Part shown: positions 2,203 to 23,747 of the stretch, piece after piece
How positions within the stretch are numbered: the stretch's first letter is position 1
How the letters are laid out: each line of letters opens with the position of its first letter
DNA from: Steroidobacteraceae bacterium
GTDB lineage: Bacteria > Pseudomonadota > Gammaproteobacteria > Steroidobacterales > Steroidobacteraceae
Assembly (NCBI GenBank): GCA_035524495.1
Contig: DATKOR010000045.1
Coordinates: 2,862-66,861 of the forward strand
Length of the DNA stretch: 64,000 nucleotides
Reading direction: 5' to 3'
Program-made: the position numbers and the translations under genes
Notes under the pieces: generated by a model
The model's database searches: none
What the model was told of the DNA's origin: nothing
What the model saw: only the letters and a program-made list of their open reading frames with translations

Positions 2203-2210
2203 GCGCGTCT

Positions 2211-2438: not shown

Positions 2439-2440
2439 GG

Positions 2441-2950: not shown

Positions 2951-2975
2951 GAATGGTCTCCGTGCTATTGCCTGT

Positions 2976-4412: not shown

Positions 4413-7235
4413 TCAGTTGGCCGGTGGTGGGATCGCGAACGGATCGTTGTAGTACTGACCGCCGATGTCGAGCCACTCGGAGATCAGCTTCAGCTCGGCC
4501 CCGGTCAGCCAGCCGGCGTGCGTACCGCCAGTGGCGAACTCATTGAAGAAGGCCGCCGAAGCATTCGCTCCCGCGCCGCTCATTGGCGGAGTGACCTGCA
4601 CGATGACCTGCGTGGGCAGGCCCGTCACCGGGTCCGGCGGTCCGGGCACGACGACGGGCTGCATAGTAACAGGGTCGAGCTCGGGGTGCGGGAACAGCAG
4701 CTGGCAGAACGAGGTGAACTCGTTCTGGTCGCAGGGGTTGGTCTGGGCCGGGCTGCTTGAGAGGTCGAGCTGACCCGCCGACACGCGCTTGACTCCGGCC
4801 GTGTCCAGCGGGCTGTGGCAGCCGGTGCAGGTCGTGTACGGCATCGTCGTGTTGGGATCGACGGCCGTGATCGTCGACCGCGGGCTGGTCCACAGCGGCG
4901 CGATGTGCAGCGGGTAGTGGATCGTGATGCGGCAGTTGTTCTGCCAGTTCGTCTCGCAGTCGGCCCGGACCGGTGCCGGCGTGCCGAGCTGCGCGTACGT
5001 CCAGGAGAACGAGGGGTCGGGCGTGCCGACACCGGTCGTCGTCCAGACGTCGGTGAACACGATGTCGACCGCCGGGTCGCTGGCGCAGGCCGCATCGACG
5101 CACGTCACCTGCATCGCGGCCCGGTAGTCGGCCATCGTCTCGCCGGCATTGGGCTGGCGCGGCGGGGGGACGATGTTGCCGGTGCGGTCGGTGACCTGCA
5201 GCGCCGTGTTCGGGAAGGCCTGGCCGGACACCGGGGCGCCGGTGTTCACGAGCGGGAACAGGCCGACCCGTCCGTGCGAGTTCGACGGCGGCATCTGCTG
5301 TTGCACGTGGCAGCCGTTGCAGACGACGGTCTCGCCGGTGCGGATCTGCATCCACGCGCGGTGGCGAGGGAACGTCCCGTCGAGCCGCCGGCCGTTGGCG
5401 TCGAGCAGGCTGATCTGGAAGGCGATGTTGGCCGGCACCTTGATGCGCACCGAGCCGTCCGGCTCGACCGGCGCGTAGCCGATGATCTCGCGCATGAAGC
5501 CGCCGGCTACGCCGAAGGCATAGTTCGGGAAGTTGTTGTTCGACAGCACTTCCTTGTCGGGCAGGCTGACCGCCTTCTCGACGCGCACGAAGCGCGGCCG
5601 GGTCGCGCTCGGCTGGCGCAGCGCCGGGTCGCGGACGGTCGCGATGCCCCCCGGAGCCGTATCGACGCCGTCGAAGTCGTAGACACTCTTTATATCCAGG
5701 ATGCCGACACCCTCGGCCGCCAGGGCGAAGGTGTAGGAGCCGGTGGTGCTCGGCTGGGCGTCCGGGATCACGGTCGGCGTCGGCAGCCGGGGCTGCAGCG
5801 CGACGACGTCGGTGAACATCATGCCCTCGACCGGCGTCACGATCGGCATCTGCGTGTTGTTGGCCGGATCGTAGATCCAGATGCTGTAGATCGTAGGTGC
5901 CGGCGTCACGCCGGTGATCGCGAGATTCTGCGAGGTGCACGGCACGACCAGCGTCTGGTTGAGCAGCCGGCACTGGCTCCAGCTGACGAGCAGCCGGTTG
6001 GTGCCGTCCCACAGCGGGAACACACTCGAGAAGCGGCCGCCGGGTGAGGGCGGCGCGACCGGCGGCGTCGCGTTGGGATCGGCGGCCGTGGTCACGACGT
6101 CGTTGACAACCATGCGCACCTGGCCGGTCGCGCCGGCCGCGACGGTCGCACCCAGGACCGTCTGCAGGTTCTCGACGAAGTTGGCCTGGTCAACGAGCGC
6201 GATGTCGCCGCCGAACTCGGTGCCCTGGAACGGCAGCAGGAGCGCAACGATCTTGCCGTCCGGACGGGAGCGCGCCTGGGTGAACTGCACCAGCGAGCCG
6301 CCCTGTGCGGTCGTCGGGTTGCCGGTGTCGTGGCTGTTGCGCCCGTACAGCAACTGCATGTCGCCGCCGTCCGGGTCGATCGCGTACAGGTGCATGCCGG
6401 CACCCGAGTTCTGGTCCCAGCGCGTGAACACGACGCGACCGTCGTTGAGCACCGACGGGTCGAGGTCGTGTCCGGTGTTGAACGAGACTTGGTGGATGCC
6501 GGTGCCGTCCGCGTTCATCACGTGGACGACGAACGCCGGCAGGTTGCGGTTGCCCTCGATGCCGGCCGCGAACTGCTGCTTGCCCTCGTCGATCAGCACC
6601 GCCTTGGCGTCGTGCTGGCGCGTCGAGGAGAACACGATGCGCCCGTCCGGCAGGTAGTGCGGACCGACGTCGTGACCGAGCGCCGCGGCGATCGGGTCGC
6701 TGATGACCTGGCGTACCGTGCCCTTGGTCGCGTCGTATTCGAAGATCGTCCAGCGCGGCTGCTGCGACTCCTTGGCGTTCTTAATCGTGTGGCAGCGGAA
6801 CGAGAAGATCAGCTTGGTGCCGTCGAAGGACGAGTCGAGATCGCGCACGTCGTGATCGGGGCCGGAGTTCCGGTTCGGATCCGAGGCCAGCGGGCAGGCA
6901 ATCGAGGAGGTGATGTTCTTCTCGTTCGCCGTCGGGCTCGCGCGCTCGCGCACCCACACGTCGGCCGGCCCGTTCCAGACGCGCTGCACGCGCAGGTCGT
7001 CCTCGAGCGTGATCGCGTTCGGGTCGGTGGGGTCGGGCAACGTCCGCTTGATGTAGGCGATCGCGAAGTCGGGCGATACCGGGTCGTTCGACGAGGTGCC
7101 GCTGCCCAGACCGATGCCGCTGTTGCTGCTGGCGGTGCCGTCGCTGCTCGAGCAGGCGGCGGCGAGCGCCGCGAGCAACGTCACAACGAGCAAGCGCTGT
7201 ACGCGGCTCAGCAGTGTTGCGTTCACAGTGTCCAT
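4413..7235 (-). CDS. Large lipoprotein: TolB/PD40-like beta-propeller with two c-type heme-binding (CxxCH) motifs
   Basis: Trimmed to MDTVNATLLSRVQRLLVVTLLAALAAAC (lipobox), 940 aa. PD40-like repeats: HYLPDGRIVFSSTR, LNDGRVVFTRWD, RPDGKIVALL. CNGCH at nt 5307-5321 and CTGCH at nt 4815-4829. The overall architecture is reminiscent of proteins carrying the hydrazine-synthase-alpha middle domain (inference). Confidence 0.8.
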   Translation of the reverse strand: MDTVNATLLSRVQRLLVVTLLAALAAACSSSDGTASSNSGIGLGSGTSSNDPVSPDFAIAYIKRTLPDPTDPNAITLEDDLRVQRVWNGPADVWVRERASPTANEKNITSSIACPLASDPNRNSGPDHDVRDLDSSFDGTKLIFSFRCHTIKNAKESQQPRWTIFEYDATKGTVRQVISDPIAAALGHDVGPHYLPDGRIVFSSTRQHDAKAVLIDEGKQQFAAGIEGNRNLPAFVVHVMNADGTGIHQVSFNTGHDLDPSVLNDGRVVFTRWDQNSGAGMHLYAIDPDGGDMQLLYGRNSHDTGNPTTAQGGSLVQFTQARSRPDGKIVALLLPFQGTEFGGDIALVDQANFVENLQTVLGATVAAGATGQVRMVVNDVVTTAADPNATPPVAPPSPGGRFSSVFPLWDGTNRLLVSWSQCRLLNQTLVVPCTSQNLAITGVTPAPTIYSIWIYDPANNTQMPIVTPVEGMMFTDVVALQPRLPTPTVIPDAQPSTTGSYTFALAAEGVGILDIKSVYDFDGVDTAPGGIATVRDPALRQPSATRPRFVRVEKAVSLPDKEVLSNNNFPNYAFGVAGGFMREIIGYAPVEPDGSVRIKVPANIAFQISLLDANGRRLDGTFPRHRAWMQIRTGETVVCNGCHVQQQMPPSNSHGRVGLFPLVNTGAPVSGQAFPNTALQVTDRTGNIVPPPRQPNAGETMADYRAAMQVTCVDAACASDPAVDIVFTDVWTTTGVGTPDPSFSWTYAQLGTPAPVRADCETNWQNNCRITIHYPLHIAPLWTSPRSTITAVDPNTTMPYTTCTGCHSPLDTAGVKRVSAGQLDLSSSPAQTNPCDQNEFTSFCQLLFPHPELDPVTMQPVVVPGPPDPVTGLPTQVIVQVTPPMSGAGANASAAFFNEFATGGTHAGWLTGAELKLISEWLDIGGQYYNDPFAIPPPAN

Positions 7236-7578: not shown

Positions 7579-8799
7579 ATGAAAGCAGCGATGCAGGTTA
7601 GGCAGATCAACGCAGCCGCTCCGCAGCGAGCTCTCGGCGCCGCGATCGTCGCGTCGGCGCTCGTGATGCTCTCGGCACTCGCGGCGCCGGCCCTCGCCGG
7701 GTCGCGCGAGCAGGCGATGCGCATGCACGACCGCCTGAACGGTTCGCCACCGACGCAGGCCGTGCTCGACTCGATGCAGGCGCAGATCGACGGCGGCAAC
7801 GCCAAGGGTGCCGCGCTGCTCGCGATCGACGACCCGAACGGCAACTTCTACTCGGTCGTGCTGAAGAACTTCGCGATGCCGTGGACGAACCGCGACCAGA
7901 CCGCGTTCGCCCCGCTCAACGACTACGTCGCGACCGTCGTCGGCATGGTGCGCGACGAGGTGCCGTTCAACACGCTGCTGTCGGCCGACCTTATCTATGT
8001 GGGCAAGAGCGGGCTCGGACTGCCGGCCTACTCGAACACCGACAACAACCACTATGTGCAGATGGAGGCGCAGGCGCTGAATCTGCGCGACGTGCTGGTG
8101 GCGGCGCCGCAATCGGCGACGACCGGACTTCCGGCGGCAGCAACCGCCGGCGTGATCACGACCCGCGCCGCGGCTCGTGCCTTCTTCATCCTCGGCACCA
8201 ACCGCGCGATGTTCCGCTTCACGATGATCAATCACATGTGCACGGACCTGCAGCTCGTGATGGACATCACGCGTCCGACCGACCGCATCCGCCAGGACGT
8301 CAGCCGCAGCCCGGGCGGCGACAGCCGCGTGTTCCTGAACAACTGCGTCGGTTGCCACTCCGGCATGGACCCGATGGTGCAGGCGTTCGCCTTCTACGAC
8401 TACGTCGATAATACGACGACCGACAACGGCTCGCTGCAGTACACGCCGGGCACGGTCGTCGGCAAGTACTTCCACAACAACACGACGTTCGCCCCGGGCT
8501 ACATCACGCCCGACGATCACTGGGACAACCGCTGGCGGACGGGACAGAACTCGCTGATGGGCTGGGACTCGACGCAGCCCGGCTCCGGCAACGGCGCGAA
8601 GTCACTCGGGGCCGAGATCGGCGCCAGCGGCCAGTTTGCGCAGTGCCAGGTGACGAAAGTGTTTCAGGCGGTGTGCCTGCGCGCGCCTTCGGACGCGGCA
8701 GACCGCTCGCAGGTGGCCACGATGGTCGCGGACTTCAAGCAGGGCTACTCCTTGAAGAACGCGTTCGCTGAGGCCGCTGTGTACTGCATGGGCAATTGA
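7579..8799 (+). CDS. Secreted DUF1588-like protein with CxxCH motif
   Basis: 406 aa with signal peptide (…LSALAAPALAGS). CVGCHSGMDPM (nt 8344-8358 for CVGCH) matches the C-x-x-C-H-x-x-x-D-P signature I associate with DUF1588/PSD-type planctomycete domains. Confidence 0.75.
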   Translation: MKAAMQVRQINAAAPQRALGAAIVASALVMLSALAAPALAGSREQAMRMHDRLNGSPPTQAVLDSMQAQIDGGNAKGAALLAIDDPNGNFYSVVLKNFAMPWTNRDQTAFAPLNDYVATVVGMVRDEVPFNTLLSADLIYVGKSGLGLPAYSNTDNNHYVQMEAQALNLRDVLVAAPQSATTGLPAAATAGVITTRAAARAFFILGTNRAMFRFTMINHMCTDLQLVMDITRPTDRIRQDVSRSPGGDSRVFLNNCVGCHSGMDPMVQAFAFYDYVDNTTTDNGSLQYTPGTVVGKYFHNNTTFAPGYITPDDHWDNRWRTGQNSLMGWDSTQPGSGNGAKSLGAEIGASGQFAQCQVTKVFQAVCLRAPSDAADRSQVATMVADFKQGYSLKNAFAEAAVYCMGN

Positions 8800-8812
8800 G
8801 GGAGTATCGACC

Positions 8813-11341
8813 ATGAACGCGTCAGGTTTGATCGATACTCTTCGGACTCAGTCGCTGCGCGTGACGCGCGGCCGGGTGACGGCGCTCGCGGTCCTCGCGG
8901 CCAGCGTGCTGCTCGCCGGCTGCGGCGCCGGCAGCGTCCAGACGGCCGCCAACCCGGTGGCACCGCCGACGACCAACGGTCAGAGCTACAACGGCCCGGC
9001 ACCGGCGAGCGCCGACGTCCAGGCCTTCGTCGTCAACTTCTGGAACAACGTCAAGGCAACCGACCGCTGCGGCGCGTGCCACATCCAGGGCAACCAGAGC
9101 CCGATGTTCGCCCGCAACGACGACGTCAACCTCGCCTACCAGGCGGCGCAGACCGTCGTTGACCTGACGAATCCGGCCAACTCGATCATCGTCGGCAAGG
9201 TCGGCGGCGGCCACCACTGCTGGCTCGCCAGCAACCAGGCGTGCGCCGACACGATGACGACCTGGATCAAGAACTGGGCCGGCGTCACGATGGGCAGCTC
9301 GAAGGCGACGATCCAGCTCGTCGCGCCGACGCTGATGGACGCCGGCGGCTCGCGCACGTTCCCGGCGAGCTCGACGCTCTTCGCGCAGACCGTCTATCCG
9401 CTGCTGACGCAGTACTGCTCGCGCTGCCATTCGCCGAGCGCCGCGACGGCCCAGTCGCCGTACTTCGCGCAGGCCGACGTCGACGCCGCCTACGCGGCCG
9501 CGCAGCCGAAGATGAACCTCGACACGCCGACGCTGTCGCGCTTCTACGTCCGGCTGCACGACGAGTTTCACAACTGCTGGGGCGGCGACTGTGCCGCGGC
9601 CTCGGCGCAGATGCTGGCCGCGATCCAGGCCTTCGCGAACCAGGTGCCGGTCACGCAGGTCGACCCGAACTGGTTGCTGTCGAAGGCGCTGACGATGTAC
9701 GACGGCGTCGTCGACAACGGCGGCACGCGTGTCGAGACCGGCCTGATCGCCAAGTTCGAGTTCAAGACCGGCACCGGCACGATCGCCTACGACACGAGCG
9801 GCGTCGAGCCAGCGCTGAACCTCGACATGTCCGGCGACGTGACCTGGGTCGGTGGCTGGGGCGTGCAGGTGCAGAACAAGGGCAAGCTGCAGGGCACGAC
9901 TACCGGCAGCGCCAAGCTGCACGACATGATCCTGACCACCGGCGAGTACAGCGTCGAGGCGTGGGTCGCGCCGGCCAACGTGACGCAGACGATGGCCTAC
10001 ATCGTCTCGTACTCGGGCGGCACGACGCAGCGTAACTTCACGCTCGGCCAGACGATGTACAACTACGACGCGTTCCTGCGCAGCACCACGACCAATGCCA
10101 ACGGCCAGCCGGAATTCTCGACTCCGTCGGCGCAGCAGGTCCTGCAGGCGACGCTGCAGCACGTCGTGATGACCTACGACCCGGTCAACGGTCGCCAGAT
10201 CTACGTCAACGGCCAGCTGGTCGCGACCGGTGACCCGCAGAAGGGCGGCTCGCTGTCGCAGTGGGACAACACCTTCGCGCTGGTGCTCGGCAACGAGGTC
10301 TCGTCCGACCGGCCGTTCTCTGGCCTGCTGAAGATGGTCGCGATCTACAACCGCGCGATGCCGGCTGCCGACGTGCAGTCGAACTTCGCCGCCGGCGTCG
10401 GCGAGCGGTACTACCTGCTCTTCAACGTGGACAAGTTCACCGGCCTCAACCAGACCTACGTGATGTTCGAGGTGTCCGAGTACGACAGCTACTCGTACCT
10501 CTTCAACAAGCCGGTGTTCCTGAGCCTCGATCCGACCGTCAACTACAGCGGCCTCGTGGTCAAGGGCATGCGCATCGGCATCAACGGCATGGAAGCGCCG
10601 GTCGGCCAGGCGTACGCACCGCTGAACACGACGGTCAGCGGCCAGGGCTTCGACCCGACCACGAGTCCGCTCTCGGCCGTGGCGCTGTCGAGCGTCGGCA
10701 CGACGATCGCGCTGCAGAAGGGTCCGTCCTACGACCAGTTCTTCCTGACCTTCGAGCAGCTCGGCACGGCGACCAACGTGCACACCGACGCCACGCCGAT
10801 CGCGCCGATCCCGACGGACTCGCCGCGGCCGGCCGATGTCGGCGTGCGCACCTTCGAGCAGATCAACACGTCGCTGTCGACGATGACGACGGTGCCGAAG
10901 ACCAACGCGGCGGCCAGCGCGCTCTACCATAGCCTGCAGCAGTCGCTGCCGGCCACGCCGTCCTTCGTCGGCTTCGTGTCCTCGCACCAGACGGCGATCG
11001 CCCAGCTGTCGATCCAGTACTGCGACGCGCTGGTGCGGGATCCGAACCTGAGCGCGGCGTACTTCCCAGGCTTGAACTTCGGTGCGGCGCCGGCTGCGGC
11101 CTACGACACCAACGGGCGCAACGCACTGATCACGCCGCTGATCGACCACATGCTCAGCGCCAACTCGGCGGCGGGCAAGTTCCTCGCCAGCCAGCCGACC
11201 GCGGCTTCAGTGAGGACGGAGCTCAATGCGCTGATCGACAAGCTGTCGGCATCGGTGTCCGCGGATACGACCGGTACCGCGACCATTGCCAAGGCGGCCT
11301 GTGCGGCCGTCGCCGGCAGCTCCGCGATGCTGGTGCAGTAA
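8813..11341 (+). CDS. Lipoprotein with two tandem CxxCH modules, a LamG/concanavalin-like domain and a long C-terminal domain
   Basis: 842 aa. GAGGGAG ribosome-binding site and lipobox LLAGC. CGACH (nt 9068-9082) and CSRCH (nt 9416-9430). LamG-type blocks: HVVMTYDPVNGRQIYVNGQLV and FALVLGNE…FSGLLKMVAIYNRAMPAADV. Confidence 0.8.
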   Translation: MNASGLIDTLRTQSLRVTRGRVTALAVLAASVLLAGCGAGSVQTAANPVAPPTTNGQSYNGPAPASADVQAFVVNFWNNVKATDRCGACHIQGNQSPMFARNDDVNLAYQAAQTVVDLTNPANSIIVGKVGGGHHCWLASNQACADTMTTWIKNWAGVTMGSSKATIQLVAPTLMDAGGSRTFPASSTLFAQTVYPLLTQYCSRCHSPSAATAQSPYFAQADVDAAYAAAQPKMNLDTPTLSRFYVRLHDEFHNCWGGDCAAASAQMLAAIQAFANQVPVTQVDPNWLLSKALTMYDGVVDNGGTRVETGLIAKFEFKTGTGTIAYDTSGVEPALNLDMSGDVTWVGGWGVQVQNKGKLQGTTTGSAKLHDMILTTGEYSVEAWVAPANVTQTMAYIVSYSGGTTQRNFTLGQTMYNYDAFLRSTTTNANGQPEFSTPSAQQVLQATLQHVVMTYDPVNGRQIYVNGQLVATGDPQKGGSLSQWDNTFALVLGNEVSSDRPFSGLLKMVAIYNRAMPAADVQSNFAAGVGERYYLLFNVDKFTGLNQTYVMFEVSEYDSYSYLFNKPVFLSLDPTVNYSGLVVKGMRIGINGMEAPVGQAYAPLNTTVSGQGFDPTTSPLSAVALSSVGTTIALQKGPSYDQFFLTFEQLGTATNVHTDATPIAPIPTDSPRPADVGVRTFEQINTSLSTMTTVPKTNAAASALYHSLQQSLPATPSFVGFVSSHQTAIAQLSIQYCDALVRDPNLSAAYFPGLNFGAAPAAAYDTNGRNALITPLIDHMLSANSAAGKFLASQPTAASVRTELNALIDKLSASVSADTTGTATIAKAACAAVAGSSAMLVQ

Positions 11342-11363
11342 CGGAACCATCGAGGCAACTATC

Positions 11364-12977
11364 ATGATCATCCGGAACAAACCGCCGCGGACTCTGAAGC
11401 TCGACGAGCCGATCCTTCACCGCGAGGCGCACAAGCGGCCGGTCACCCGGCGCGACTTCATCGCCCAGGGCCTGATGACCGGCTCGGCGACCGTGATCGC
11501 GCCGGCCGCGCTCGGTCTGCTGCTCAACCCGCGTCGCGCGATGGCGCTCGACTCGGACATCCTGGCGCAGAAGATCGCGTGCGGCATCACCGGCGGCGCC
11601 GGCAAGATCCCGTTCATCTGCTTCGACCTCAACGGCGGCGGCAACATCGCCGGCTCGAACGTGCTGGTCGGGGGTACCGGTGGTCAGCAGGACTTCCTGA
11701 CGACCGCGGCCTACGCCAAGATGGGCTTGCCGGGCAGCATGGTCCCGAACGCGTCGGCGACGGGCAACTTCATCGAGAACCGCCTCGGCCTCCTGTTCCA
11801 CTCCGACAGCGCGCACGTGCGCGGCATTCTCGAGCGCACCGCGCCGTCGACACAGGCGTTCACGAACGGCGTCGTGCTGCCGGCCCTGTCGAACAACGAT
11901 ACCAACACCAACCCGCACAACCCGATGTACGGCATCGCCAAGGTCGGTGCCAAGGGTGAACTGCTGACGCTGATCGGCTCGCAGGCCTCGACCTCGGGCG
12001 GCAATTCGATGGCGCCGCTATCGATGGTCGACCCGACGCTGACGCCGACGGTCGTCAATCAGGCGAGCAACGTCACCGGCCTCGTCGATACGGGCGTCCT
12101 CGGGCAGCTGTTCTCGAACCCGGCCGACGCGGTCTCGGTGCTCGAGTCGATGTCGCGGATCAGCGGCCAGAAGTTCGGCAACGTCTCGACGCAGCTCGCC
12201 ACCGACGCGTCGGTCAAGGCGGCAGCCAACTGCAACTACGTGAAGTCCGCCTACCTCGCCGAGAACTTCTCGAGCCCGGCGGCGTTGAACCCGGACCTCG
12301 ATCCGGTGATCGTCGACCAGAGCTCGACCCGCGGCACTGGCATCTTCAGCCAGGCCGAGTACCAGGGCGACAACGAGTTCCAGAAGACGGCGGCGATCAT
12401 GAAGATGGTCGTCAACGGCTATGCCGGCGCTGGCACGATCTCGATGGGCGGCTTCGACTACCACGGCCAGGGCCGCTCCACCGGCGAGCTGCGCGACCTG
12501 CGCGCGGGCCGCTGCATCGGTGCGTGCCTCGAGTACGCGGCGCGGATGCAGAAGCCGCTGATGATCTACGTGTTCAGCGACGGCGGCATCTCGGCCAACG
12601 GCCAGGTCGACACCTCGGTCGACGGCCGCAACAAGTTCATGTGGAGCAGCGACAACGAGTCGGTCGCCTCGACCTACTTCCTCGTCTACAACCCGACCGG
12701 GCGCCCGCAGCTGCTCGACGGCGCCGGCGGCCTGCCGGCGGCCCGCCACCAGCAGATCGGCGCCTTCACGCCGGACGGCTCGGTGAACGCGGCCTCGAGC
12801 CCGGCGGCCAGCAACGTGCTGCTGCTCGTTCAGACGGTGCTGCTCAACTACATGGCGCTGCACGGCCAGCAGGCGCAGTTCCCGCAGCTGTTCCCGGACC
12901 AGGCGCTCGGCAGCGGGTCGGCGCTCGATGCGCTGACGGCGTTCGCGCCGATCGTCAACGGCAAGATCGGCGGCTAA
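11364..12977 (+). CDS. Tat-exported DUF1501/DUF1552-like protein (alkaline-phosphatase/sulfatase-fold-like)
   Basis: Trimmed to MIIRNKPP…, 537 aa. Twin-arginine motif TRRDFIAQGL. Motifs FICFDLNGGGNIAGSNV and ISMGGFDYHGQG resemble the DUF1501 signatures (…GG.DG.N…, GGWDTH). Confidence 0.75.
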   Translation: MIIRNKPPRTLKLDEPILHREAHKRPVTRRDFIAQGLMTGSATVIAPAALGLLLNPRRAMALDSDILAQKIACGITGGAGKIPFICFDLNGGGNIAGSNVLVGGTGGQQDFLTTAAYAKMGLPGSMVPNASATGNFIENRLGLLFHSDSAHVRGILERTAPSTQAFTNGVVLPALSNNDTNTNPHNPMYGIAKVGAKGELLTLIGSQASTSGGNSMAPLSMVDPTLTPTVVNQASNVTGLVDTGVLGQLFSNPADAVSVLESMSRISGQKFGNVSTQLATDASVKAAANCNYVKSAYLAENFSSPAALNPDLDPVIVDQSSTRGTGIFSQAEYQGDNEFQKTAAIMKMVVNGYAGAGTISMGGFDYHGQGRSTGELRDLRAGRCIGACLEYAARMQKPLMIYVFSDGGISANGQVDTSVDGRNKFMWSSDNESVASTYFLVYNPTGRPQLLDGAGGLPAARHQQIGAFTPDGSVNAASSPAASNVLLLVQTVLLNYMALHGQQAQFPQLFPDQALGSGSALDALTAFAPIVNGKIGG

Positions 12978-13051
12978 CCCCGCGCGGCCCGGGCCGGCAC
13001 CGGATGGCCGGCACGGCTGCGCGCTTTCGCCGCTTCCGGCATGCTGTGCCC

Positions 13052-14416
13052 ATGCCAGGCCCGGGCCTCCTGGAGCTTCTGCAATGCCCGCGCTGCCGTC
13101 GCGCGGCGCTCGCCGCCACCGGTGCGCGCCTCGCGTGCGGCACCTGCAGGCTCGAGTTCCCGACGCTCGGGTCGATCCCCTGGCTGTTCGCGCAGCCTGA
13201 CGCGACGCTCGGCGAGTGGCGCAACCGCCTGACGCTCTACCTCGAAGAATTCTCCGCCGCCGAGCGCGCGGCCGCGGCCGACCTCGCGAGCGCGACGCGG
13301 CCCGCGACCCGCGCGCGGCTGCAGCGGCTCGGCGCGGCGTATCGCGAGCAGGGCGAGCGCGTGCGTGCGCTGCTCGCGCCGCTGCGCGTCGCGCCCGGCC
13401 CGCTCGCGCAGGCCACGCAGGTCGCGCTCGGTACGCATGTGCCGCTGACCCAGGACCTGCACTCCTACTATGCGAACCTGCATCGCGACTGGTGCTGGGG
13501 CGAGGAGGAGAACGCCGCGGCACTCGCCGAGGTCGGGACGGCACTCGGGGACGGCCGGGAGCGCGTCCTCGTGCTGGGTGCCGGCGGCGGCCGCCTCGCC
13601 TACGACCTGCACCAGGCGAGCCGCCGGCCGCTCACGGTCGCGCTCGACATCAACCCGCTGCTGCTGCTGGTCGCCGAGCGGGTCAGCCGGGGCGAGCGCG
13701 TCACGCTGTTTGAGTTCCCGATCGCACCGCGCACCGAGGCCGACGTCGCGCTGCCCCGCGAGCTCGCGGCGCCGGCGCCCGCACGTGCGGGCCTCGAGTT
13801 CGTGTTCGCCGACGCGTGGCGGGCGCCATTCGCGCCGCAGAGCTTCGATGCGGTGGTCACGCCGTGGCTCATCGACATCGTCGACCTGGACTTCGAATCG
13901 GTGGCGCTCGCGGTGAACCGGCTGCTGGTTCCGGGCGGGCGCTGGGTCAACTTCGGCTCGCTCGCGTTCCCGTGGCGCCGTCCGGAACGCCGCTACGGAC
14001 CGGACGAGGTGCGCGCGATCGTCACCGACGCGGGGTTTGAAGTCGGCCTGCAGCGCGATGCGACGCTGCCCTACATGCGCTCGCCCGCGAGCCGCCACGG
14101 ACGGCTCGAGACCGTGGCGCTGTTCGCCGCCGACAAGCGCCGCCGTGGCCCGCGCGATCCAGCCGAGGACGCTGGCCCACCCTGGCTCGCCGACACGACG
14201 CTCGCCGTGCCAAGGACCGAGGCGCTCGCGCTCGCCGCCGATGCCAGCCGCATACAGGCGGTGCTGCTCGCGCTGGTCGACGGGCAGCGCTCCGTCGACG
14301 ACCTGGTTCGCATCGTGAGCGAGCAGGGCTTGCTGCCGGCACCGCAAGCGCTGAGCGCGGTGCGCGGCCTGCTCGAGCGCCTGCATCGCACCGGCGCGAG
14401 GCTCGATCACACGTGA
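13052..14416 (+). CDS. Zn-ribbon (Trm112-like) / class I SAM-dependent methyltransferase / C-terminal PqqD-like domain fusion
   Basis: Trimmed to MPGPGLLELLQCPRCRR…CGTC (4-Cys ribbon), 454 aa. SAM motif I: VLVLGAGGGRLAYDL. Post-I/II motifs: ALDINP…, VVTPWLIDIV, LLVPGGRWVNFG (N2227-like layout). C-terminus AVLLALVDGQRSVDDLVRIVSEQG…LLERL resembles PqqD/RRE winged helix. Confidence 0.75.
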   Translation: MPGPGLLELLQCPRCRRAALAATGARLACGTCRLEFPTLGSIPWLFAQPDATLGEWRNRLTLYLEEFSAAERAAAADLASATRPATRARLQRLGAAYREQGERVRALLAPLRVAPGPLAQATQVALGTHVPLTQDLHSYYANLHRDWCWGEEENAAALAEVGTALGDGRERVLVLGAGGGRLAYDLHQASRRPLTVALDINPLLLLVAERVSRGERVTLFEFPIAPRTEADVALPRELAAPAPARAGLEFVFADAWRAPFAPQSFDAVVTPWLIDIVDLDFESVALAVNRLLVPGGRWVNFGSLAFPWRRPERRYGPDEVRAIVTDAGFEVGLQRDATLPYMRSPASRHGRLETVALFAADKRRRGPRDPAEDAGPPWLADTTLAVPRTEALALAADASRIQAVLLALVDGQRSVDDLVRIVSEQGLLPAPQALSAVRGLLERLHRTGARLDHT

Positions 14417-14741
14417 CGCGCCTCACGCCGCAAGCCGCGCGGTGCGCCGCGGCCTGTCGCTATCCGGCGACTCGATTTGGGCCCAAACCGCGGTCCAGCG
14501 TTTTTGTGAAGCGTCCAACACTCTGCGTCGAAGCTGCGCGTTGACACTGTGGGGCCTGCGTGCGAGCTTTACAGAATCTGCCAAGGGCAAACTCGTCGCG
14601 AGGCGAGGACGCAAAGCTACCGGTCCGTGACAACGCGGATAGCGGGGTTGCCGCGGGTGGCCGTGTCCGTTTTGCGGCGGCCTGCGCGACGCTCGCCAAC
14701 GGTCGCTCGCGACGCGGGCGCGCTGCCCTCGGCTCGGTGAC

Positions 14742-15317
14742 ATGGAGTTCGTGGCGACGGTGGTGCGGCGGCTCGCTCTATTGAACGTCCGGGTGCGGCG
14801 CAGTGCGGCGAGTGCCGCGCTGGCGATCGTGCTCGCCGGCGTTTCATCGTCGGCGCCGGCCGCCGACGCCGGTGCGCGCCACCCGTTGATCGGCAAGCCG
14901 GCACCGGAGATCGTGCAGCGCCTGTTCGCGGGACCGGGCCGGAACTTCCGCCTGTCCGAGCGCCGTGGTGAGGTCGTCGCGATCGGTTTCTGGACCAGCT
15001 GGTGCGGGTCGTGCCGCACGTATCTTGAGCGGCTCGCCAAGCTCGATGCGACCTACGGCCAGGCCGGTCTCGTCGTCGTCGGGATCAGCCTCGATGACGA
15101 TGCTGCAAGGGCCACGGCGCTCGCCCGCGCGGTCGGCACCAAGTTTCGCACCGGCGTCGACACGGAAAAGTCCGCCGGCAAGCGCTTCGCGGTGCCGGAC
15201 GTGCCGCTGACGCTTTTGATTGACCGCAGCGGCGTCGTGCGCTACGCGCATGGCGAGCTCGACGCCGCGTCCGATGCCGATCTCGTCAAAGAGATTCGGC
15301 AGCTGCTCGACGAATAG
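14742..15317 (+). CDS. TlpA-like periplasmic thioredoxin (second copy)
   Basis: 191 aa with active site WTSWCGSCR and the VPLTLLIDRSG block. An alternative GTG start at 14793 gives a cleaner signal peptide (VRRSAASAALAIVLAGVSSSAPA). Confidence 0.85.
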   Translation: MEFVATVVRRLALLNVRVRRSAASAALAIVLAGVSSSAPAADAGARHPLIGKPAPEIVQRLFAGPGRNFRLSERRGEVVAIGFWTSWCGSCRTYLERLAKLDATYGQAGLVVVGISLDDDAARATALARAVGTKFRTGVDTEKSAGKRFAVPDVPLTLLIDRSGVVRYAHGELDAASDADLVKEIRQLLDE

Positions 15318-15463
15318 GAACACCCGGAGTACGCGATGGACAGTCCACGTATAGCGCTCGCGATGCTCGACTGCGGCAGGGGTTCGCGACGCCGTGGTGC
15401 CCGGCGCAAGGCCTTGGCACTGCCGCGCTGGCTGTTGTGGATCACCGGAGCGCGCTCGCGCGC

Positions 15464-16096
15464 ATGACCAGAAAGGCCCGGACGATGCTCACCTACACCC
15501 GATTCTCCCAGTGGCTGCGTGCCCTCGCGGCCTGCAGCGTGCTCGCGCTCGGTGCGCCGGCGTACGCCGCCGACTCCGCGCCAGCGGCGGCGCCGGCGGC
15601 CGCTGCCGCGACGGAGCCCGCGGCCGCGCCGGCGACGACCGGCGGCGACTTCAAGAGCCTCGATGGCGAGGTGCAGGGTCTCAAGAAGGAGGTGCTGGAC
15701 CTCAACCGCGACCTCTTCATGCTCGAGGAAGAGCTGCTGTTCCCGGCAAACACCCAGGTCGCGGTGTTCCTGTCGCTCGACGTCGGCACGTTCTTCGAGC
15801 TCGACTCGGTGCAGATCAAGCTCGACAACAAGGAGGTCGCGAACTACCTGTACACGGATCGCGAGGTCGAGGCGCTCAACCGCGGCGGCGTGCACCGGGT
15901 ATTCATCGGCAACCTCAAGACCGGCAAGCACGAGCTCGTGGCGTTCTTCACCGGCAAGGGACCGCACGAGCGCGACTACAAGCGCGGCGCCAACATGACC
16001 TTCGAGAAGGGCGTGGGCGCGAAGTACCTCGAGCTCAAGATCTCCGACCGCCAGAGCGCCCAGCAGCCCGAGTTCAAGGTCAAGGAGTGGGAGTGA
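15464..16096 (+). CDS. Secreted coiled-coil protein of unknown function (first gene of the TPR/ExbBD/TonB operon)
   Basis: About 210 aa from MTRKARTMLTYTRF…. Signal peptide …VLALGAPAYA, Ala/Pro-rich linker, heptad-like segment LDGEVQGLKKEVLDLNRDLFMLEEEL, then a beta-rich C-terminal domain. Its stop overlaps the next gene's GTG. Confidence 0.7.
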   Translation: MTRKARTMLTYTRFSQWLRALAACSVLALGAPAYAADSAPAAAPAAAAATEPAAAPATTGGDFKSLDGEVQGLKKEVLDLNRDLFMLEEELLFPANTQVAVFLSLDVGTFFELDSVQIKLDNKEVANYLYTDREVEALNRGGVHRVFIGNLKTGKHELVAFFTGKGPHERDYKRGANMTFEKGVGAKYLELKISDRQSAQQPEFKVKEWE

Positions 16097-18033
16097 GCCG
16101 AGGCGGCATCACGAGCGGCGCGCGCGCGTGTGCGTGCCTGCTGGCGCTGGCGTTCAGCGCCGGCGTGGCCGCGCCGAAGGCGACGCCGACACCGGGGGCG
16201 CTGCCTCCGGTCAAGGTCCGTGACCTCTATTACGGCGATGTGCTCTATTACTTCTACCAGGACGACTATTTCACGGCGCTGACCCACCTGACCGCCGCGC
16301 AGCAGCTCGGGCGCGTGTCGCACCACGAGGGTGATGCGCAGCTGCTTCTCGGGGGCCTGTACCTCTCGCTCGGGCAGCATCGCGAGGCCGGCCAGATCTT
16401 CGCCGAGGTGTTGGACCGCAAGAACGTGCCGCAGCCGGTGCGCGACCGCGCGCGGTTCTTCCTCGGCAAGGTGTGGTACCAGCGCGGCTACTTCGACAAG
16501 GCCGCCGACACGCTCGCGGCGGCGGGCAGGGCGGGCCTGTCGCCGGCGATGGAGGCCGAGCGCCGGATGCTGCTCGCCCAGGCGCTGCTGTACCAGGGCA
16601 AGTATCCCGAGGCGATTGCCGCGCTCGAGAACTGGAAGGGCCCGGTGATGTGGCAGGCCTACGCCAAGTTCAACCTGGGCGTCGCGTTCGTGCGCAACGG
16701 CCAGCTCGACCAGGGCGCGCACCTGCTCGACGAGATCGGCCGGCTCGAGCGCACCAACCGCGAGCTCGACGCGCTGCGTGACAAAGCGAACCTGGCGCTC
16801 GGCTACGCGCTGCTGCAGGCCAAGAAGCCCGTCGAGGCGCGCCCGGTGCTCGAGCGCGTGCGGCTGGACGGACCGCTGTCGACCAAGGCGCTGCTCGGCG
16901 TCGGCTGGGCCTCGAGCGATGCGCAGCAGTACCGCGACGCGCTGGTGCCGTGGCTCGAACTGCACGGGCGCGGCATGCTCGATTCGGCAGTCCAGGAGAG
17001 CTACCTCGCGGTCCCGTACGCCTACGGCAAGCTCAACGCCAACCGCCAGGCCGCCGAGTACTACGAGACGGCGATCCGCGAATTCGGAGCCGAGACCGGG
17101 CGCCTCGACGAATCGATCGCGGCGATCCGGCGCGGCGGCATGCTCGAGACGATCGTCAAGAACGAGTCGCGCAGCCAGCTTGGCTGGTTCTGGCAGCTCT
17201 CGACGCTGCCGGATGCGCCCGAGTCACGCTACCTCTATCACCTGCTCGCCCAGAACGACTTCCAGGAAGGCCTGAAGAACTTCCGAATGCTGCGCTACAT
17301 GGAGCGCAACCTCGATGGCTGGTCGACCAGCGTGGAAGCCTTCGACGACATGCTCGCCACACGCCGCGAGCGCTACGATACGCGCCTGCCGGCGGTCCTC
17401 GCCAAGCTCAACGGCGTCGACCTCGAGGAGCTGCAGCGCCGGCGCACGGAGATCGAGTCGCAGGTCGTCAGCGCCGAGAACACCGGAGACGTTGCGGCGC
17501 TCGGCACGCCGCACGAGCGCGAGCTGTGGGCGCAGGTCGAGCAGATGGAGTCGGTGCTCGCGAACGCCGGCAATGACCCCGACCTCGACGATGCCCGCGA
17601 CAAGCTGCGGCTGGCGCGCGGCGTCCTCTACTGGGAGATGAACGACGGCTTCAAGGCCCGCGCCTGGGCCGTGAGGAAGGGCGTGCGCGAGGTCTCGCAG
17701 GCGCTGCGCGAGACCGAGAAGCGCTGGTCGCTGGTTCAGGAGGCGAAGCAGGCCGTTCCGGACCGCAACGGCGAGTTCGGCGCGCGGATCGCCTCGCTGC
17801 GCCCGCGCATCGAAGGGGCGCGCGACCGGCTCGCGGCGCTTGAGCGCGCGCAGGCCGACTACCTGGCCGACATCGCGGTGCGCGAGCTCGAGTCGCAGAA
17901 GGAGCGCATCGCGACCTACATGCTGCAGGCGCGTTACTCGCTCGCGACGATCTATGACCGCGCGACGCAGGACCTCGATGCCAAGCGCGGCCCGGCGCCG
18001 CAAGCGCCGACGCCGCCCCAGGGCACGCAATGA
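16093..18033 (+). CDS. Tetratricopeptide-repeat (TPR) protein with coiled-coil C-terminal half
   Basis: GTG start in a GTGA overlap with the upstream stop, about 646 aa. Signal-like N-terminus (ACACLLALAFSAGVAAP). Repeated TPR-like A/Y/L patterns, then long charged helices. The upstream part of track ORF 15394.. is out of frame with the real upstream gene and Arg-rich. Confidence 0.75.
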   Translation: MSRGGITSGARACACLLALAFSAGVAAPKATPTPGALPPVKVRDLYYGDVLYYFYQDDYFTALTHLTAAQQLGRVSHHEGDAQLLLGGLYLSLGQHREAGQIFAEVLDRKNVPQPVRDRARFFLGKVWYQRGYFDKAADTLAAAGRAGLSPAMEAERRMLLAQALLYQGKYPEAIAALENWKGPVMWQAYAKFNLGVAFVRNGQLDQGAHLLDEIGRLERTNRELDALRDKANLALGYALLQAKKPVEARPVLERVRLDGPLSTKALLGVGWASSDAQQYRDALVPWLELHGRGMLDSAVQESYLAVPYAYGKLNANRQAAEYYETAIREFGAETGRLDESIAAIRRGGMLETIVKNESRSQLGWFWQLSTLPDAPESRYLYHLLAQNDFQEGLKNFRMLRYMERNLDGWSTSVEAFDDMLATRRERYDTRLPAVLAKLNGVDLEELQRRRTEIESQVVSAENTGDVAALGTPHERELWAQVEQMESVLANAGNDPDLDDARDKLRLARGVLYWEMNDGFKARAWAVRKGVREVSQALRETEKRWSLVQEAKQAVPDRNGEFGARIASLRPRIEGARDRLAALERAQADYLADIAVRELESQKERIATYMLQARYSLATIYDRATQDLDAKRGPAPQAPTPPQGTQ

Positions 18034-21922: not shown

Positions 21923-22003
21923 ACCACGGTATTCGTAACATAAGTTGAGTGAAATGGACCGGCCAAGCCGGCAAACCTCGTCGAATCGAACGGAGCAGCG
22001 GAG

Positions 22004-23726: not shown

Positions 23727-23747
23727 GTTTCGCCGAGCGAGCCCACG

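Follow-up and report, generated by a model that had tools for sequence, protein, structure and literature searches.

The described systems closest to the locus that we studied come from Planctomycetes, Verrucomicrobia, and Lentisphaerae, which encode PSCyt1/PSCyt2/PSD1 (DUF1549/DUF1553) proteins together with DUF1501 proteins in modules that also have multi-gene variants (Kamneva et al. 2012, PMC3542564). Kamneva et al. proposed that the DUF1501/PSCyt modules combine electron transport with a Tat-exported cofactor enzyme, while their function is unknown (PMC3542564). In the canonical pairings, DUF1501 lies beside PSCyt2/PSD1, while PSCyt3/PSD2-type proteins lie beside DUF1552. Three other known systems are relevant. 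First, Cbp2D of the gammaproteobacterium Cellvibrio japonicus combines a CBM, DUF1587, and the mono-heme domains X183/X132, and it donates electrons to LPMOs; its CBM-linked X183 domain has been proven to be a cytochrome c and to reduce LPMOs, and its modules serve a separate extracytoplasmic metalloenzyme (PMC8981238). Second, ApbE, DUF3570, DUF4266, and a thioredoxin-like protein make up a published extracytosolic electron-transfer (flavinylation) module; the passages on DUF3570/DUF4266 in that paper give no terminal function for it (Meheust et al. 2021, PMC8238504). Third, homologs of hydrazine synthase alpha (HZS-alpha) in non-anammox bacteria have no known function (PMC12758564).

Our subject is a 64,000-nucleotide stretch of DNA from a Steroidobacteraceae bacterium (the window). 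A preliminary description had reported three tightly packed plus-strand genes for exported proteins, and the ORF list agrees: the genes, which we call A, B, and C, are co-directional, with intergenic gaps of just 13 and 22 nt, and all three products carry export signals. Their features, all on the + strand, are as follows.

7579..8799, +: gene A (ORF 7579-8799), a Sec-exported, all-helical protein of 406 aa with one CxxCH (ORF, translation, AF2)
8323..8751, +: region of A (aa 249-391) resembling PSCyt3 (DUF1588) and then PSD2 (DUF1585) (sub-threshold Pfam, hhalign)
8344-8373, +: CVGCHSGMDP in A (aa 256-265; translation)
8813..11341, +: gene B (ORF 8813-11341), an 842-aa lipoprotein with heme-motif modules, LamG, middle, and C-terminal domains
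8921-8923, +: Cys37 in the lipobox LLAGC of B (sequence motif)
8990..9637, +: two tandem mini-cytochrome-like modules of B (aa 60-275; conserved motifs)
9899..10378, +: Laminin_G_3 of B (aa 363-522; Pfam E = 4.3e-26), a concanavalin-like lectin domain
10388..10741, +: middle domain of B (aa 526-643; hmmsearch of B profiles against distant loci)
10760..11302, +: C-terminal domain of B (aa 650-830), with invariant Y736, C737, and C830
11364..12977, +: gene C (full ORF 11286-12977), 537 aa, with a predicted alkaline-phosphatase-superfamily core and a helical cap insert at about aa 245-350
11364..11546, +: signal region of C, a conserved n-region of about 29 aa (with H24) followed by T-R30-R31-D-F-I
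11448-11453, +: invariant twin arginines R30-R31 of C
11613..11660, +: motif PFICFDLNGGGNIAGS of C at the end of beta-strand 1, with D89, G92, and G93
12447..12584, +: motifs GGFD366-Y-H368-GQG and VFSD407-G of C, predicted metal ligands, each directly after a beta-strand

The likely start of C is the ATG at 11364, which is kept in its orthologs. GC3 is 0.90-0.93 in all three genes, as in the other real genes of this window of about 70% GC. Because the gaps are so short and we found no terminator-like site on the + strand between the genes, A-B-C is probably one transcription unit.

Homologs are numerous: at 90% identity there are at least 8000 clusters for A and at least 8000 for C, 1554 clusters match C at 50% identity, and relatives of C occur in at least 590 GTDB species genomes. 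(A itself is 100% identical to a protein from one Steroidobacteraceae MAG.) A, B, and C are strictly co-inherited. In all 67 of the gammaproteobacterial loci with enough flanking sequence, the order is the same, with an HZS-alpha-like gene on the minus strand diverging from A-B-C; these loci come from Steroidobacteraceae, Woeseiaceae, Kangiellaceae, Microbulbifer, Paraglaciecola, Aliiglaciecola, Lentisalinibacter, and Sedimenticola. No second copy of A-B-C was found within the loci of about 21 kb that we compared, in contrast to the massively expanded families of the PVC bacteria, and the system is highly conserved in Gammaproteobacteria. Every cysteine of A and B is kept across about 70 orthologs.

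How is A related to the planctomycete-type proteins? The preliminary description had called it DUF1588-like on the basis of CVGCHSGMDP, and this largely stands: C256, C259, and H260 are invariant, and 36 of 40 orthologs match PSCyt3, although the protein in the window is itself sub-threshold (E = 0.17). PSD2 is matched by 26 of 40 (best E = 6e-6). Profile comparison with hhalign pairs A with the C-terminus of DUF1592-type proteins at 61% probability (E = 8e-5). As in the DUF1587/DUF1592/DUF1595/DUF1588/DUF1585 proteins that pair with DUF1552, the C-terminal half of A (CxxCH-x-G-M-D-P and the last 60 aa or so) resembles PSCyt3 and then PSD2, and the gene lies upstream of that for a Tat-signal partner. 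On the other hand, A is only about 400 aa long and lacks the DUF1587, DUF1592, and DUF1595 parts. No match of A or B to PSCyt1, PSCyt2, or PSD1 reaches threshold. The AF2 model of A is all-alpha (pLDDT 69) and has no match among PDB folds. A therefore looks like a consistent but sub-threshold relative of PSCyt3 and PSD2.

C was described initially as a Tat-exported protein with DUF1501-like motifs. The motifs are there (TRRDFI, NGGGNIAGSN, and GGFDYHGQG). Across 49 representatives that reach down to 29% identity, R30 and R31 never vary and H24 is conserved in at least 90%; G92, G93, D180, G364, D366, H368, D407, G408, D431, and Q465 are also invariant, while D89 is absent from the invariant list of the most diverse alignment. 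Furthermore, five motifs occur in the same order and spacing in C and DUF1501: RR, beta-strand 1 followed by GG, N-x-H-x-P, [WY]-D-x-H, and GR. PFICFDLNGGGNIAGS aligns with V-I-x-L-x-x-x-G-G-P-S of DUF1501, and the D-x-H of C with its W-D-x-H. The hhalign alignment is collinear with nearly identical motif spacing, but it is assigned only 8% probability (P = 0.004), and C differs from DUF1501 at GGPS-x-x-DTFD, EFGRT, and GRDH. Searches of Pfam (even at E <= 10), NCBIfam, and PDB sequences gave no match to C, and none of 49 diverse family members matches DUF1501 or DUF1552 at E <= 1. So we rejected membership in DUF1501, and also in DUF1552, for which the hhalign probability is 0.9%.

Because C lies outside both families and A is related only below threshold to PSCyt3/PSD2, which canonically pair with DUF1552, these comparisons indicate that A-B-C is a separate sister system and not a transplanted planctomycete pair. 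The systems do share a layout, in that a Tat-signal protein of about 480-540 aa is encoded beside exported CxxCH proteins, with Laminin_G_3 as a possible component; by our comparisons, this resemblance to PSCyt/PSD and DUF1501 is remote kinship. Nor does the proteobacterial host make the locus stand out, given that a canonical DUF1553+DUF1501 pair is already present on a plasmid of Catenovulum, another gammaproteobacterium. HMM searches placed none of the three proteins in a characterized enzyme family, in agreement with the preliminary description, and we propose that A/B/C form a family that was not previously described.

The structural model of C (pLDDT 74) weakly suggests a fold class. The best 50 PDB fold matches from Foldseek are all enzymes of the alkaline phosphatase (AP) superfamily, including sulfatases, alkaline phosphatases, ENPP6, MCR-1, and LtaS, but the E-values are around 1e-3 or worse (best 1.4e-3) and the TM-scores are 0.2-0.3. 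In this superfamily, metal ligands sit at the ends of core beta-strands. The predicted core of C likewise places Asp, Asp-x-His, and Asp at strand ends, as in sulfatases, PhoA, NPP/ENPP, iPGM, MCR-1/EptA, and LtaS. Unlike those enzymes, C has D-x-H instead of D-H and a large helical cap insert, has no sequence-level match to them, and is co-inherited with three heme-motif sites.

If C has this fold, it might be a conventional hydrolase or group transferase of the superfamily whose substrate is a phospho- or sulfo-ester on a glycan, either of the envelope or extracellular. LamG in B would present the substrate, and the hemes of A and B would sense redox state or oxygen or be structural, without passing electrons to C. 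Every fold match of C is a hydrolase or transferase, LamG is the best-defined domain in the locus, and PSCyt genes in Verrucomicrobia often accompany CBMs and lie near sulfatases. Nevertheless, we consider this unlikely. We could not assign a catalytic nucleophile in C (in some orthologs Gly or Ala replaces S148 and S150), and LamG is missing from some versions of B, as described below, so it is not essential to the core. Three invariant heme sites that are kept through divergence to 30% identity and through fusion or splitting would also be costly for a regulatory add-on, and dedicated redox modules are wired to the locus in 67 of 67 gammaproteobacterial loci.

B matches its first description as an 842-aa lipoprotein with two CxxCH motifs and a LamG domain. 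The motifs are CGACH at aa 86 and CSRCH at aa 202, and each belongs to a module of the form CxxCH-(43-46 aa)-H-x-C-W-(3-7 aa)-C: C86, C89, H90, H134, C136, and C144 in module 1, and C202, C205, H206, H253, C255, and C260 in module 2. All of these residues are invariant in 29 orthologs and conserved in 75. Laminin_G_3 is found in all 29, and it matches sialidase lectin domains in the PDB weakly. All 29 also have weak matches to generic cytochrome c models. B had no sequence match to PDB cytochromes, including X183. Like Cbp2D, B is an exported protein from a gammaproteobacterial host in which small single-heme-type modules are fused to a carbohydrate-binding-type module, but its partner has a predicted AP fold and is not a copper LPMO.

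Could these motifs bind no heme at all? The conserved cysteines might instead be metal ligands or be paired in disulfides, kept in that state by the two thioredoxin-fold proteins encoded nearby, with A and B having non-redox structural or binding roles. An extra invariant cysteine pair goes with each CxxCH of B, and A has four further invariant cysteines; neither protein reaches the threshold of any specific cytochrome family model; and AF2 models the CxxCH region of A poorly (pLDDT below 50). We know of no demonstration that a PSCyt domain binds heme, and papers on these domains call their function unknown. We still find this improbable. The histidine of the CxxCH is invariant in all three motifs, and both B modules have a second invariant histidine 44-47 residues on, which is the pattern of bis-His heme c and does not fit a disulfide. 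The heme-motif proteins all carry Sec or lipoprotein signals and so would reach the compartment where heme is attached. ResA/TlpA-type thioredoxins, which one adjacent protein resembles, reduce the CxxCH of apocytochromes. Finally, X183, a related mono-heme domain from a protein that also has DUF1587, has been proven to be a cytochrome c (PMC8981238).

Distant relatives show that the unit can be divided differently. In six sequenced lineages at 30-37% identity, hmmsearch with B profiles finds the C-terminal domain as a separate lipoprotein of 186-280 aa between A and C, and the middle domain with the heme modules as another lipoprotein downstream of C, so that the order is A-like, B-C-terminal-like, C-like, B-heme/middle-like. 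A seventh lineage has the same pattern, judged by gene sizes. LamG is missing from these split versions, while CxxCH is retained in the A-like and B-like proteins. By this comparison B joins two proteins that have genes of their own in distant lineages, and the unit, originally counted as three proteins, is better described as four modules. The pattern also argues for a physical partnership of the A, B, and C products.

The preliminary description also linked A-B-C to neighboring genes, and its ApbE, thioredoxin, beta-propeller lipoprotein, and TonB-like genes are real neighbors. The genes on either side are as follows.

4413..7235, -: HZS-alpha-like 940-aa lipoprotein, beta-propeller (Pfam HZS_alpha E = 5e-14, plus PD40)
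1015..4408, -: the rest of the operon shared with the HZS-alpha-like gene (Pfam and motif searches)
3635-4408, -: SH3/OMP barrel
2976-3665, -: OMP-barrel lipoprotein
2441-2950, -: ResA/TlpA-like thioredoxin
2211-2438, -: DUF4266 with C-terminal CGC
1015-2202, -: DUF3570 with TGAS flavinylation motif
22..996, +: ApbE flavin transferase (Pfam E = 3.9e-83)
13004..15317, +: accessory genes downstream of C
13004-14416, +: cytoplasmic methyltransferase with Trm112-like zinc ribbon
14742-15317, +: exported AhpC/TSA-type redoxin
15394..24662, +: facultative module of two TPR proteins, a small protein, ExbB/TolQ, two ExbD/TolR, and a GltG-like TonB-family protein

The layout of the HZS-alpha-like protein is that of hydrazine synthase alpha, in that a beta-propeller is combined with the HZS_alpha middle domain and CxxCH occurs twice (ORF residues 680 and 844), but the protein scores just 34 bits against the hydrazine-synthase equivalog model (cut-off 800), lacks beta and gamma subunits, and comes from a host that is not an anammox bacterium. 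All four components of the flavinylation module are present, with the diagnostic TGAS in DUF3570 and the C-terminal CXC in DUF4266. The DUF3570/DUF4266/thioredoxin part also lies upstream of A-B-C in the gammaproteobacterial loci, and ApbE is within 3.5 kb downstream of C in 10 other loci. A/B/C and the HZS-alpha-like gene are thus invariant neighbors of the module here, whereas the published passages on DUF3570/DUF4266 mention neither (PMC8238504). No DsbD was identified among the window ORFs that we scanned. The methyltransferase is accessory (20 of 83 loci), the redoxin lies downstream of C in 36 of 63, and the TPR/ExbB/ExbD/TonB-like module in 45 of 63.

This last module raises the idea that A/B/C form the end nearest the outer membrane of a trans-envelope machine that runs on the proton-motive force, with the TolQR/ExbBD-like proteins, the GltG-like TonB protein, and the TPR scaffolds as its motor. 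The layout (TPR-TPR-small-ExbB-ExbD-ExbD-TonB-like) resembles the Agl/Glt core complex, whose function in Gammaproteobacteria is unknown; the TonB-like protein exceeds the curated cut-off for the AgmX/PglI C-terminal domain and has a match to GltG as well; and the cluster has two small OMP barrels, a DUF3570 barrel, and three lipoproteins. Also, MotA-MotB lie directly upstream of the A-like gene in two very divergent split-type loci, whose C-like proteins are 30% identical. However, motor genes are missing from about 30% of gammaproteobacterial loci and from 3 of 5 split-type loci with upstream flank, the TPR proteins gave only a weak GltE match, and A, B, and C show no resemblance to a TonB box or a known Glt component. 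We are more doubtful of this idea than of the hydrolase, although it overlaps with the explanation that we prefer. The adjoining TonB-family module could also point to iron acquisition, with flavin- and heme-based reduction of ferric iron or siderophores at the outer membrane, energized by the TonB-like protein. This seems very improbable: neither the cluster in the window nor two annotated related loci (L001 and L002) yielded a gene for a TonB-dependent receptor, an iron transporter, a Fur-type regulator, or a siderophore, the TonB-like protein belongs with GltG/AgmX and not with classical TonB, and it is hard to see what an AP-fold protein would do in iron uptake.

The explanation that we prefer, tentatively and at somewhat less than even confidence, is that the three proteins work together, as subunits or obligate partners, in a single extracytoplasmic enzyme complex, namely a periplasmic redox complex anchored to the outer membrane whose mini-cytochromes serve the metal site of C. 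The catalytic subunit would be C, with an AP-superfamily fold and a predicted metal site of D89, D366-x-H368, and D407; it would fold, and probably be metallated, in the cytoplasm and then be exported by Tat. The lipid anchor of B would probably hold it at the outer membrane, and, judging from its motifs, B would supply two small heme c modules, probably bis-His ligated, while its LamG would hold the substrate or a partner. A may supply a third heme c. The hemes would connect C to an electron source or sink, in whichever direction electrons flow. In Gammaproteobacteria, candidate electron partners are a relay of thioredoxin, DUF4266, and flavinylated DUF3570, and the HZS-alpha-like di-heme propeller. 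This flavin/thiol module is not obligatory, because the split-type clusters stand alone, with neither DUF3570 nor HZS-alpha-like neighbors. Also, we know of no AP-superfamily enzyme that acts as an oxidoreductase, so this explanation offers no reason for C to need electrons. The locus lies beside a known flavin/thiol electron-transfer module, so its putative function is open to test.

Three tightly packed genes on the plus strand, which we call A, B, and C, encode exported proteins, and every feature that a preliminary description had listed for them is found in their translations. The gaps between them are 13 nt (A-B) and 22 nt (B-C), and a promoter and terminator scan found no terminator-like site between them on the plus strand. 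The window has a GC content of about 70%, and the GC3 of the three genes (0.90-0.93) matches that of the other genuine genes in the window. The ORF call for C starts at TTG 11286; the start that is conserved among orthologues is the ATG at 11364. Our residue numbers for C count from translation at 11361, so subtracting 1 gives the numbering from Met. The features that we refer to below are:

4413-7235, minus strand: HZS-alpha-like neighbour, a 940-aa lipoprotein with a beta-propeller, an HZS_alpha middle domain, and two CxxCH motifs
7579-8799, plus strand: gene A, 406 aa
8813-11341, plus strand: gene B, 842 aa
11364-12977, plus strand: gene C, 537 aa
13004-14416: cytoplasmic SAM methyltransferase with an N-terminal Trm112-like CxxC…CxxC ribbon
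15394-24662: seven-gene module (TPR, TPR, small protein, ExbB/TolQ, ExbD/TolR, ExbD/TolR, TonB-like)
24673-64000: SirB-like, glucose-6-phosphate dehydrogenase, Edd/IlvD-type dehydratase, PEP carboxylase, serine dehydratase, flavin monooxygenase, hydantoinase, a dCache-HAMP-GGDEF-EAL protein, and Ile-tRNA synthetase

The last of these regions is ordinary housekeeping chromosome. No DsbD was found among the window ORFs that we scanned.

The three genes stay together in other bacteria. When each GTDB species was represented by one genome, a relative of C turned up in at least 590 genomes, including Sedimenticola, Kangiellaceae, and Woeseiaceae as well as the cultured hosts Microbulbifer harenosus, M. 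flavimaris, Paraglaciecola, Aliiglaciecola, and Lentisalinibacter. A closer alignment of C gave 80 related loci, all at least 55% identical. The order is the same in all 67 of the loci that have enough upstream flank: the HZS-alpha-like gene on the minus strand, then A, B, and C on the plus strand. The synteny on which the preliminary description depended is thus kept in relatives. Genes of the flavin/thiol module (DUF3570, DUF4266, and thioredoxin) lie further upstream in 66-67 of these 67 loci. The genes upstream of A in the window and in two annotated loci are, in order, DUF3570, DUF4266, thioredoxin, OMP, SH3/OMP, and the HZS-alpha-like gene, and each is on the minus strand. No second, paralogous copy of A/B/C is present in any of the loci that we fetched.

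Distant lineages have another arrangement, which we call split-type clusters. Their C-like proteins are 30-37% identical, their GC content is 41-60%, and their order is an A-like gene (with one CxxCH), a lipoprotein of 186-280 aa, a C-like gene, and a lipoprotein of 286-497 aa. The shorter lipoprotein matches residues 650-823 of B, and the longer one matches the haem modules of B together with residues 526-643. These clusters have no LamG domain, no DUF3570, and no HZS-alpha-like gene. Because the counterpart of B is two separate genes in these lineages, B is a fusion and the conserved core consists of four modules.

Protein C belongs to a large family that the protein family databases do not see. 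Searches with Pfam and NCBIfam models found nothing in C at any threshold, and none of the homologues, which form at least 8000 clusters at 90% identity, has a Pfam domain. When 1.84 billion representative proteins were searched with a profile of the family, 1554 clusters at 50% identity came back, while tblastn against 72,556 plasmids gave no match and a sequence-profile search of the PDB found nothing. Among 49 diverse members, down to 29% identity, the invariant residues are R30, R31, G92, G93, D180, G364, D366, H368, D407, G408, D431, and Q465. R30 and R31 are the Tat motif. C has, as had been proposed, a twin-arginine signal and exported CxxCH (PSCyt-type) proteins next to it, with A and B as its immediate upstream neighbours at all 67 loci. 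The n-region of the Tat signal (window 11364-11453) is unusually long, at about 29 aa, and is conserved; H24, six residues before the twin arginines, is nearly invariant even at 29% identity. This region might bind a chaperone or a modifying enzyme. The NCBI records of several homologues of C (P0003, P0107, and P0517) are named "general secretion pathway protein GspF." Nothing in the sequence backs this name, which appears to be a misannotation that has been passed on between records.

The AF2 model of C (pLDDT 74, pTM 0.76) shows an alpha/beta core into which helices are inserted at about residues 245-350. When the PDB was searched with this model using Foldseek, the best 50 matches were all enzymes of the alkaline phosphatase (AP) superfamily, with weak scores (best E = 1.4e-3, best probability 0.82, TM 0.2-0.3). 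D366, H368, and D407, which are invariant and follow beta-strands, are predicted metal ligands; D89 is invariant among closer relatives only. Judging from the model, C is best described as a putative new AP-fold family. C could be a plain esterase, with the haems of its partners being sensory. The AP-like fold would suit an esterase, and yet the family has no single invariant nucleophile: S148 and S150 are variable, which leaves S99 and T181 as candidates.

Is C a DUF1501 protein, as its motifs had suggested? The DUF1501 model (PF07394) does not match C even at E ≤ 10, and neither DUF1501 nor DUF1552 matches any of the 49 diverse family members at E ≤ 1. Genuine DUF1501 proteins were recognised within the same collection. 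We also compared profiles with hhalign, using a DUF1501 set of genuine proteins from Singulisphaera and Catenovulum plasmids plus 120 further homologues. The C family (49 sequences) aligned to DUF1501 (63 sequences) with a probability of 7.9% (P = 0.0043) and a score of 32.2, versus 21.7-22.6 for unrelated controls; an alignment of just three DUF1501 sequences gave no signal. Despite the weak P value, the two profiles align collinearly along about 400 columns, and the alignment pairs the Tat RR, beta-1 followed by GG, N-x-H-x-P, and [WY]-D-x-H at near-identical spacing. So the label "DUF1501-like" survives for the order and spacing of the motifs, but not as family membership, which no HMM match backs. 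As for DUF1552 (PF07586), there was no Pfam match to C, and hhalign against two annotated DUF1552 proteins gave a probability of 0.9%. The choice between the two families that the preliminary description had posed therefore falls away, as C is a member of neither by Pfam. C is probably a distant cousin of DUF1501 that lies outside DUF1501 proper. During this comparison we noticed an unannotated DUF1552-like sequence that is spread over two reading frames on a plasmid of Novosphingobium sp. KACC 22771 (L087, 4371-6020). It is 50% identical to an approximate motif query and has a DUF1592-like ORF of 867 aa upstream. It may be a pseudogene or reflect a sequencing frameshift.

Protein A shares 100% identity with a protein of a Steroidobacteraceae metagenome-assembled genome. 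It has a Sec-type signal peptide, and its cysteines 221, 256, 259, 356, 366, and 403, along with H260, are conserved across about 70 orthologues. It had been described as DUF1588-like. The DUF1588 model (PSCyt3) does match A exactly on CxxCH-x-GMDP, with E = 0.17 and 12.6 bits, below the gathering cut-off of 27; Pfam gave no match of DUF1585 (PSD2) to this protein. Across 40 orthologues, PSCyt3 matches 36 (best E = 0.0028), PSD2 matches 26 (best E = 6e-6), and PSCyt2 matches 5. The PSCyt3-like and PSD2-like signals come in the expected order, with the CxxCH region first and then the C-terminal domain, and some orthologues have a precomputed match to PF07624. Also, hhalign places residues 249-391 of A on the last ~110 aa of DUF1592-type proteins (61% probability, E = 8e-5), which we took from annotated plasmids of Planctomyces, Chondrinema, and Novosphingobium. 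Given the sub-threshold PSCyt3 match, the family-wide PSD2 matches, and the hhalign result, A is a short, remote relative of the PSCyt3 plus PSD2 end of planctomycete-type proteins. The earlier label is right about a remote likeness that runs through the whole family, but the protein in the window falls short of Pfam's gathering thresholds. The AF2 model of A is all-helical (pLDDT 69) with a poorly modelled CxxCH region, a fold search of the PDB with it found nothing (E > 8), and neither did a sequence-profile search of the PDB.

Protein B is a lipoprotein (its lipobox has Cys37 followed by Gly) that carries a tandem pair of modules with the pattern CxxCH-(43-46)-H-x-C-W-(3-7)-C. The invariant residues are C86, C89, H90, H134, C136, and C144 in the first module and C202, C205, H206, H253, C255, and C260 in the second. 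These modules would be consistent with small haem c domains that each have bis-His ligation and a disulfide staple. Next comes Laminin_G_3 (PF13385) at residues 363-522, which scores 92.3 bits (E = 4e-26) against a cut-off of 27.6 and is found in 29 of 29 orthologues, so the LamG domain that had been noticed in this 842-aa lipoprotein is genuine by Pfam's gathering score. It is followed by two domains without a family model (526-643 and 650-830). A sequence-profile search of the PDB with B gave only a weak match to a lectin domain. Profile comparison found no domain in common between A and B. Against DUF1587, DUF1592, or DUF1553 proteins, hhalign gave B only short matches centred on CxxCH, at 38% probability or less. 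The CxxCH cysteines of A and B might instead form non-haem motifs, and of the cytochrome c models only generic ones match B, weakly. Nevertheless, all three motifs (one in A and two in B) are invariant, as the preliminary description required, and A and B have Sec and lipoprotein signals. By the criterion of conserved CxxCH plus periplasmic export, A and B are predicted to be c-type cytochromes with covalent haem.

The neighbouring genes give the locus a redox context outside the cytoplasm. The flavinylation module is complete at the window locus, with Pfam E values of 3.9e-83 for ApbE, 1.5e-41 for DUF3570, and 1.7e-20 for DUF4266. The thioredoxin is ResA/TlpA-like (ResA match, E = 1.7e-32), DUF3570 has the TGAS flavinylation motif at residue 79, and DUF4266 ends in GGCGCN, with a C-terminal CGC. 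DUF3570, DUF4266, thioredoxin, and ApbE together are a published extracytosolic flavinylation module, the function of which the authors leave uncertain (Meheust et al. 2021, PMC8238504). In 10 loci, ApbE is within 3.5 kb downstream of C. The HZS-alpha-like gene is invariably divergent from A, and its host is an aerobic-type gammaproteobacterium. We rejected hydrazine synthase as its identity, because it scores 34 bits where the cut-off is 800 and because the beta and gamma subunits are missing; homologues of such layout are without known function (PMC12758564).

The genes downstream of C are not always there: of 63 loci, 36 have a redoxin and 45 have the TPR-TPR-small-ExbB-ExbD-ExbD-TonB-like module. 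The TonB-like protein matches the AgmX/PglI C-terminal domain with a score that exceeds the curated cut-off, and it matches GltG as well; the seven-gene module looks similar to the Agl/Glt "core complex" of Gammaproteobacteria, which has no known function. Two split-type clusters, whose C-like proteins share just 30% identity, have MotA-MotB directly upstream of the A-like gene (L093, 1412-3129; L094, 5210-6841). This adjacency is a second, independent link of the A/B/C unit to a proton-driven motor. Such links would suit a view of A/B/C as part of an envelope machine that is driven by the proton-motive force, although the downstream module is missing from 18 of the 63 loci. The TonB-like gene would suit a role of the cluster in iron uptake. 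The methyltransferase gene is found after C in 20 of 83 loci, and its product may act on C ahead of Tat export. A 408-aa Methyltransf_11-like gene adjoins one distant split-type cluster.

What we observe directly is that three or four exported proteins are inherited together and are fused in some lineages. Our tentative proposal, which we hold to be possible but somewhat doubtful, is that the AP-fold protein C and the haem proteins A and B form one redox-linked extracytoplasmic complex. A, B, and C would be tethered by the lipid anchor of B, C would be a catalytic metalloprotein, and the haems of A and B would link it to a redox partner; in Gammaproteobacteria, the adjoining thiol, flavin, and haem genes would provide this partner. 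A similar proposal has been made for DUF1501/PSCyt modules (Kamneva et al. 2012, PMC3542564), and the CBM-linked mono-haem domains of Cellvibrio Cbp2D are electron donors to an extracytoplasmic metalloenzyme (PMC8981238).

The main weaknesses of the redox-complex model are that C has no assignable nucleophile, that the flavin module is dispensable in distant lineages, and that we know of no oxidoreductase with the AP fold. Its rivals are a plain esterase with sensory haems, a part of an envelope machine driven by the proton-motive force, non-haem cysteine motifs, and iron uptake, each of which we hold to be less likely.

How does this unit relate to the planctomycete-type pairs? In Planctomycetes and Verrucomicrobia, pairs of PSCyt/PSD proteins with DUF1501 or DUF1552 partners rank with the largest families whose function is unknown, and they have been uncharacterised since 2004-2012 (including PMC3542564). 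So the general kind of system, in which exported CxxCH proteins are paired with a Tat-signal protein, is already known, although uncharacterised. Nor is such a pair special for being in a proteobacterium, as the preliminary description had it: a canonical DUF1553 plus DUF1501 pair is already present on a plasmid of Catenovulum adriaticum (L085, 1-6318), so canonical pairs occur in Gammaproteobacteria. On that plasmid, the pair comes after genes for a c-type cytochrome and a 6-bladed beta-propeller, which parallels the haem/propeller neighbour in the window. We rejected the idea that A/B/C is a planctomycete pair that was transferred into a proteobacterium. Unlike the known pairs, the A, B, and C families fall below or outside all of the curated models; the PSCyt3/PSD2-like A goes with a DUF1501-like C rather than a DUF1552 partner; there is a third component, B, that is fused or split; and the locus is in fixed association with the DUF3570 module and the HZS-alpha-like protein.

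A/B/C is instead a compact and highly conserved sister system, single-copy within the loci that we fetched, with a fixed redox context. The flavinylated DUF3570 module in that context is likewise without a known terminal function, at least in the published account that we cite. The family of C, with at least 1554 clusters at 50% identity and in at least 590 species, is invisible to Pfam and NCBIfam and merits a family model, as do the two unmodelled domains of B that are also found as separate genes. A bolder reading, which we consider unlikely, is that C and its remote cousin DUF1501 are the first AP-fold redox enzymes. The metal site of C would exchange electrons with the mini-cytochromes A and B, and in Gammaproteobacteria C would supply the terminal acceptor or donor that is missing from the flavinylated DUF3570/DUF4266/thioredoxin relay and the HZS-alpha-like haem propeller. 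It might, for example, carry out the oxidation or reduction of a group with P, S, or a metal on a glycan or an envelope molecule. If this were true, then one biochemical answer would also explain the highly abundant PSCyt/PSD plus DUF1501 pairs of Planctomycetes and Verrucomicrobia.
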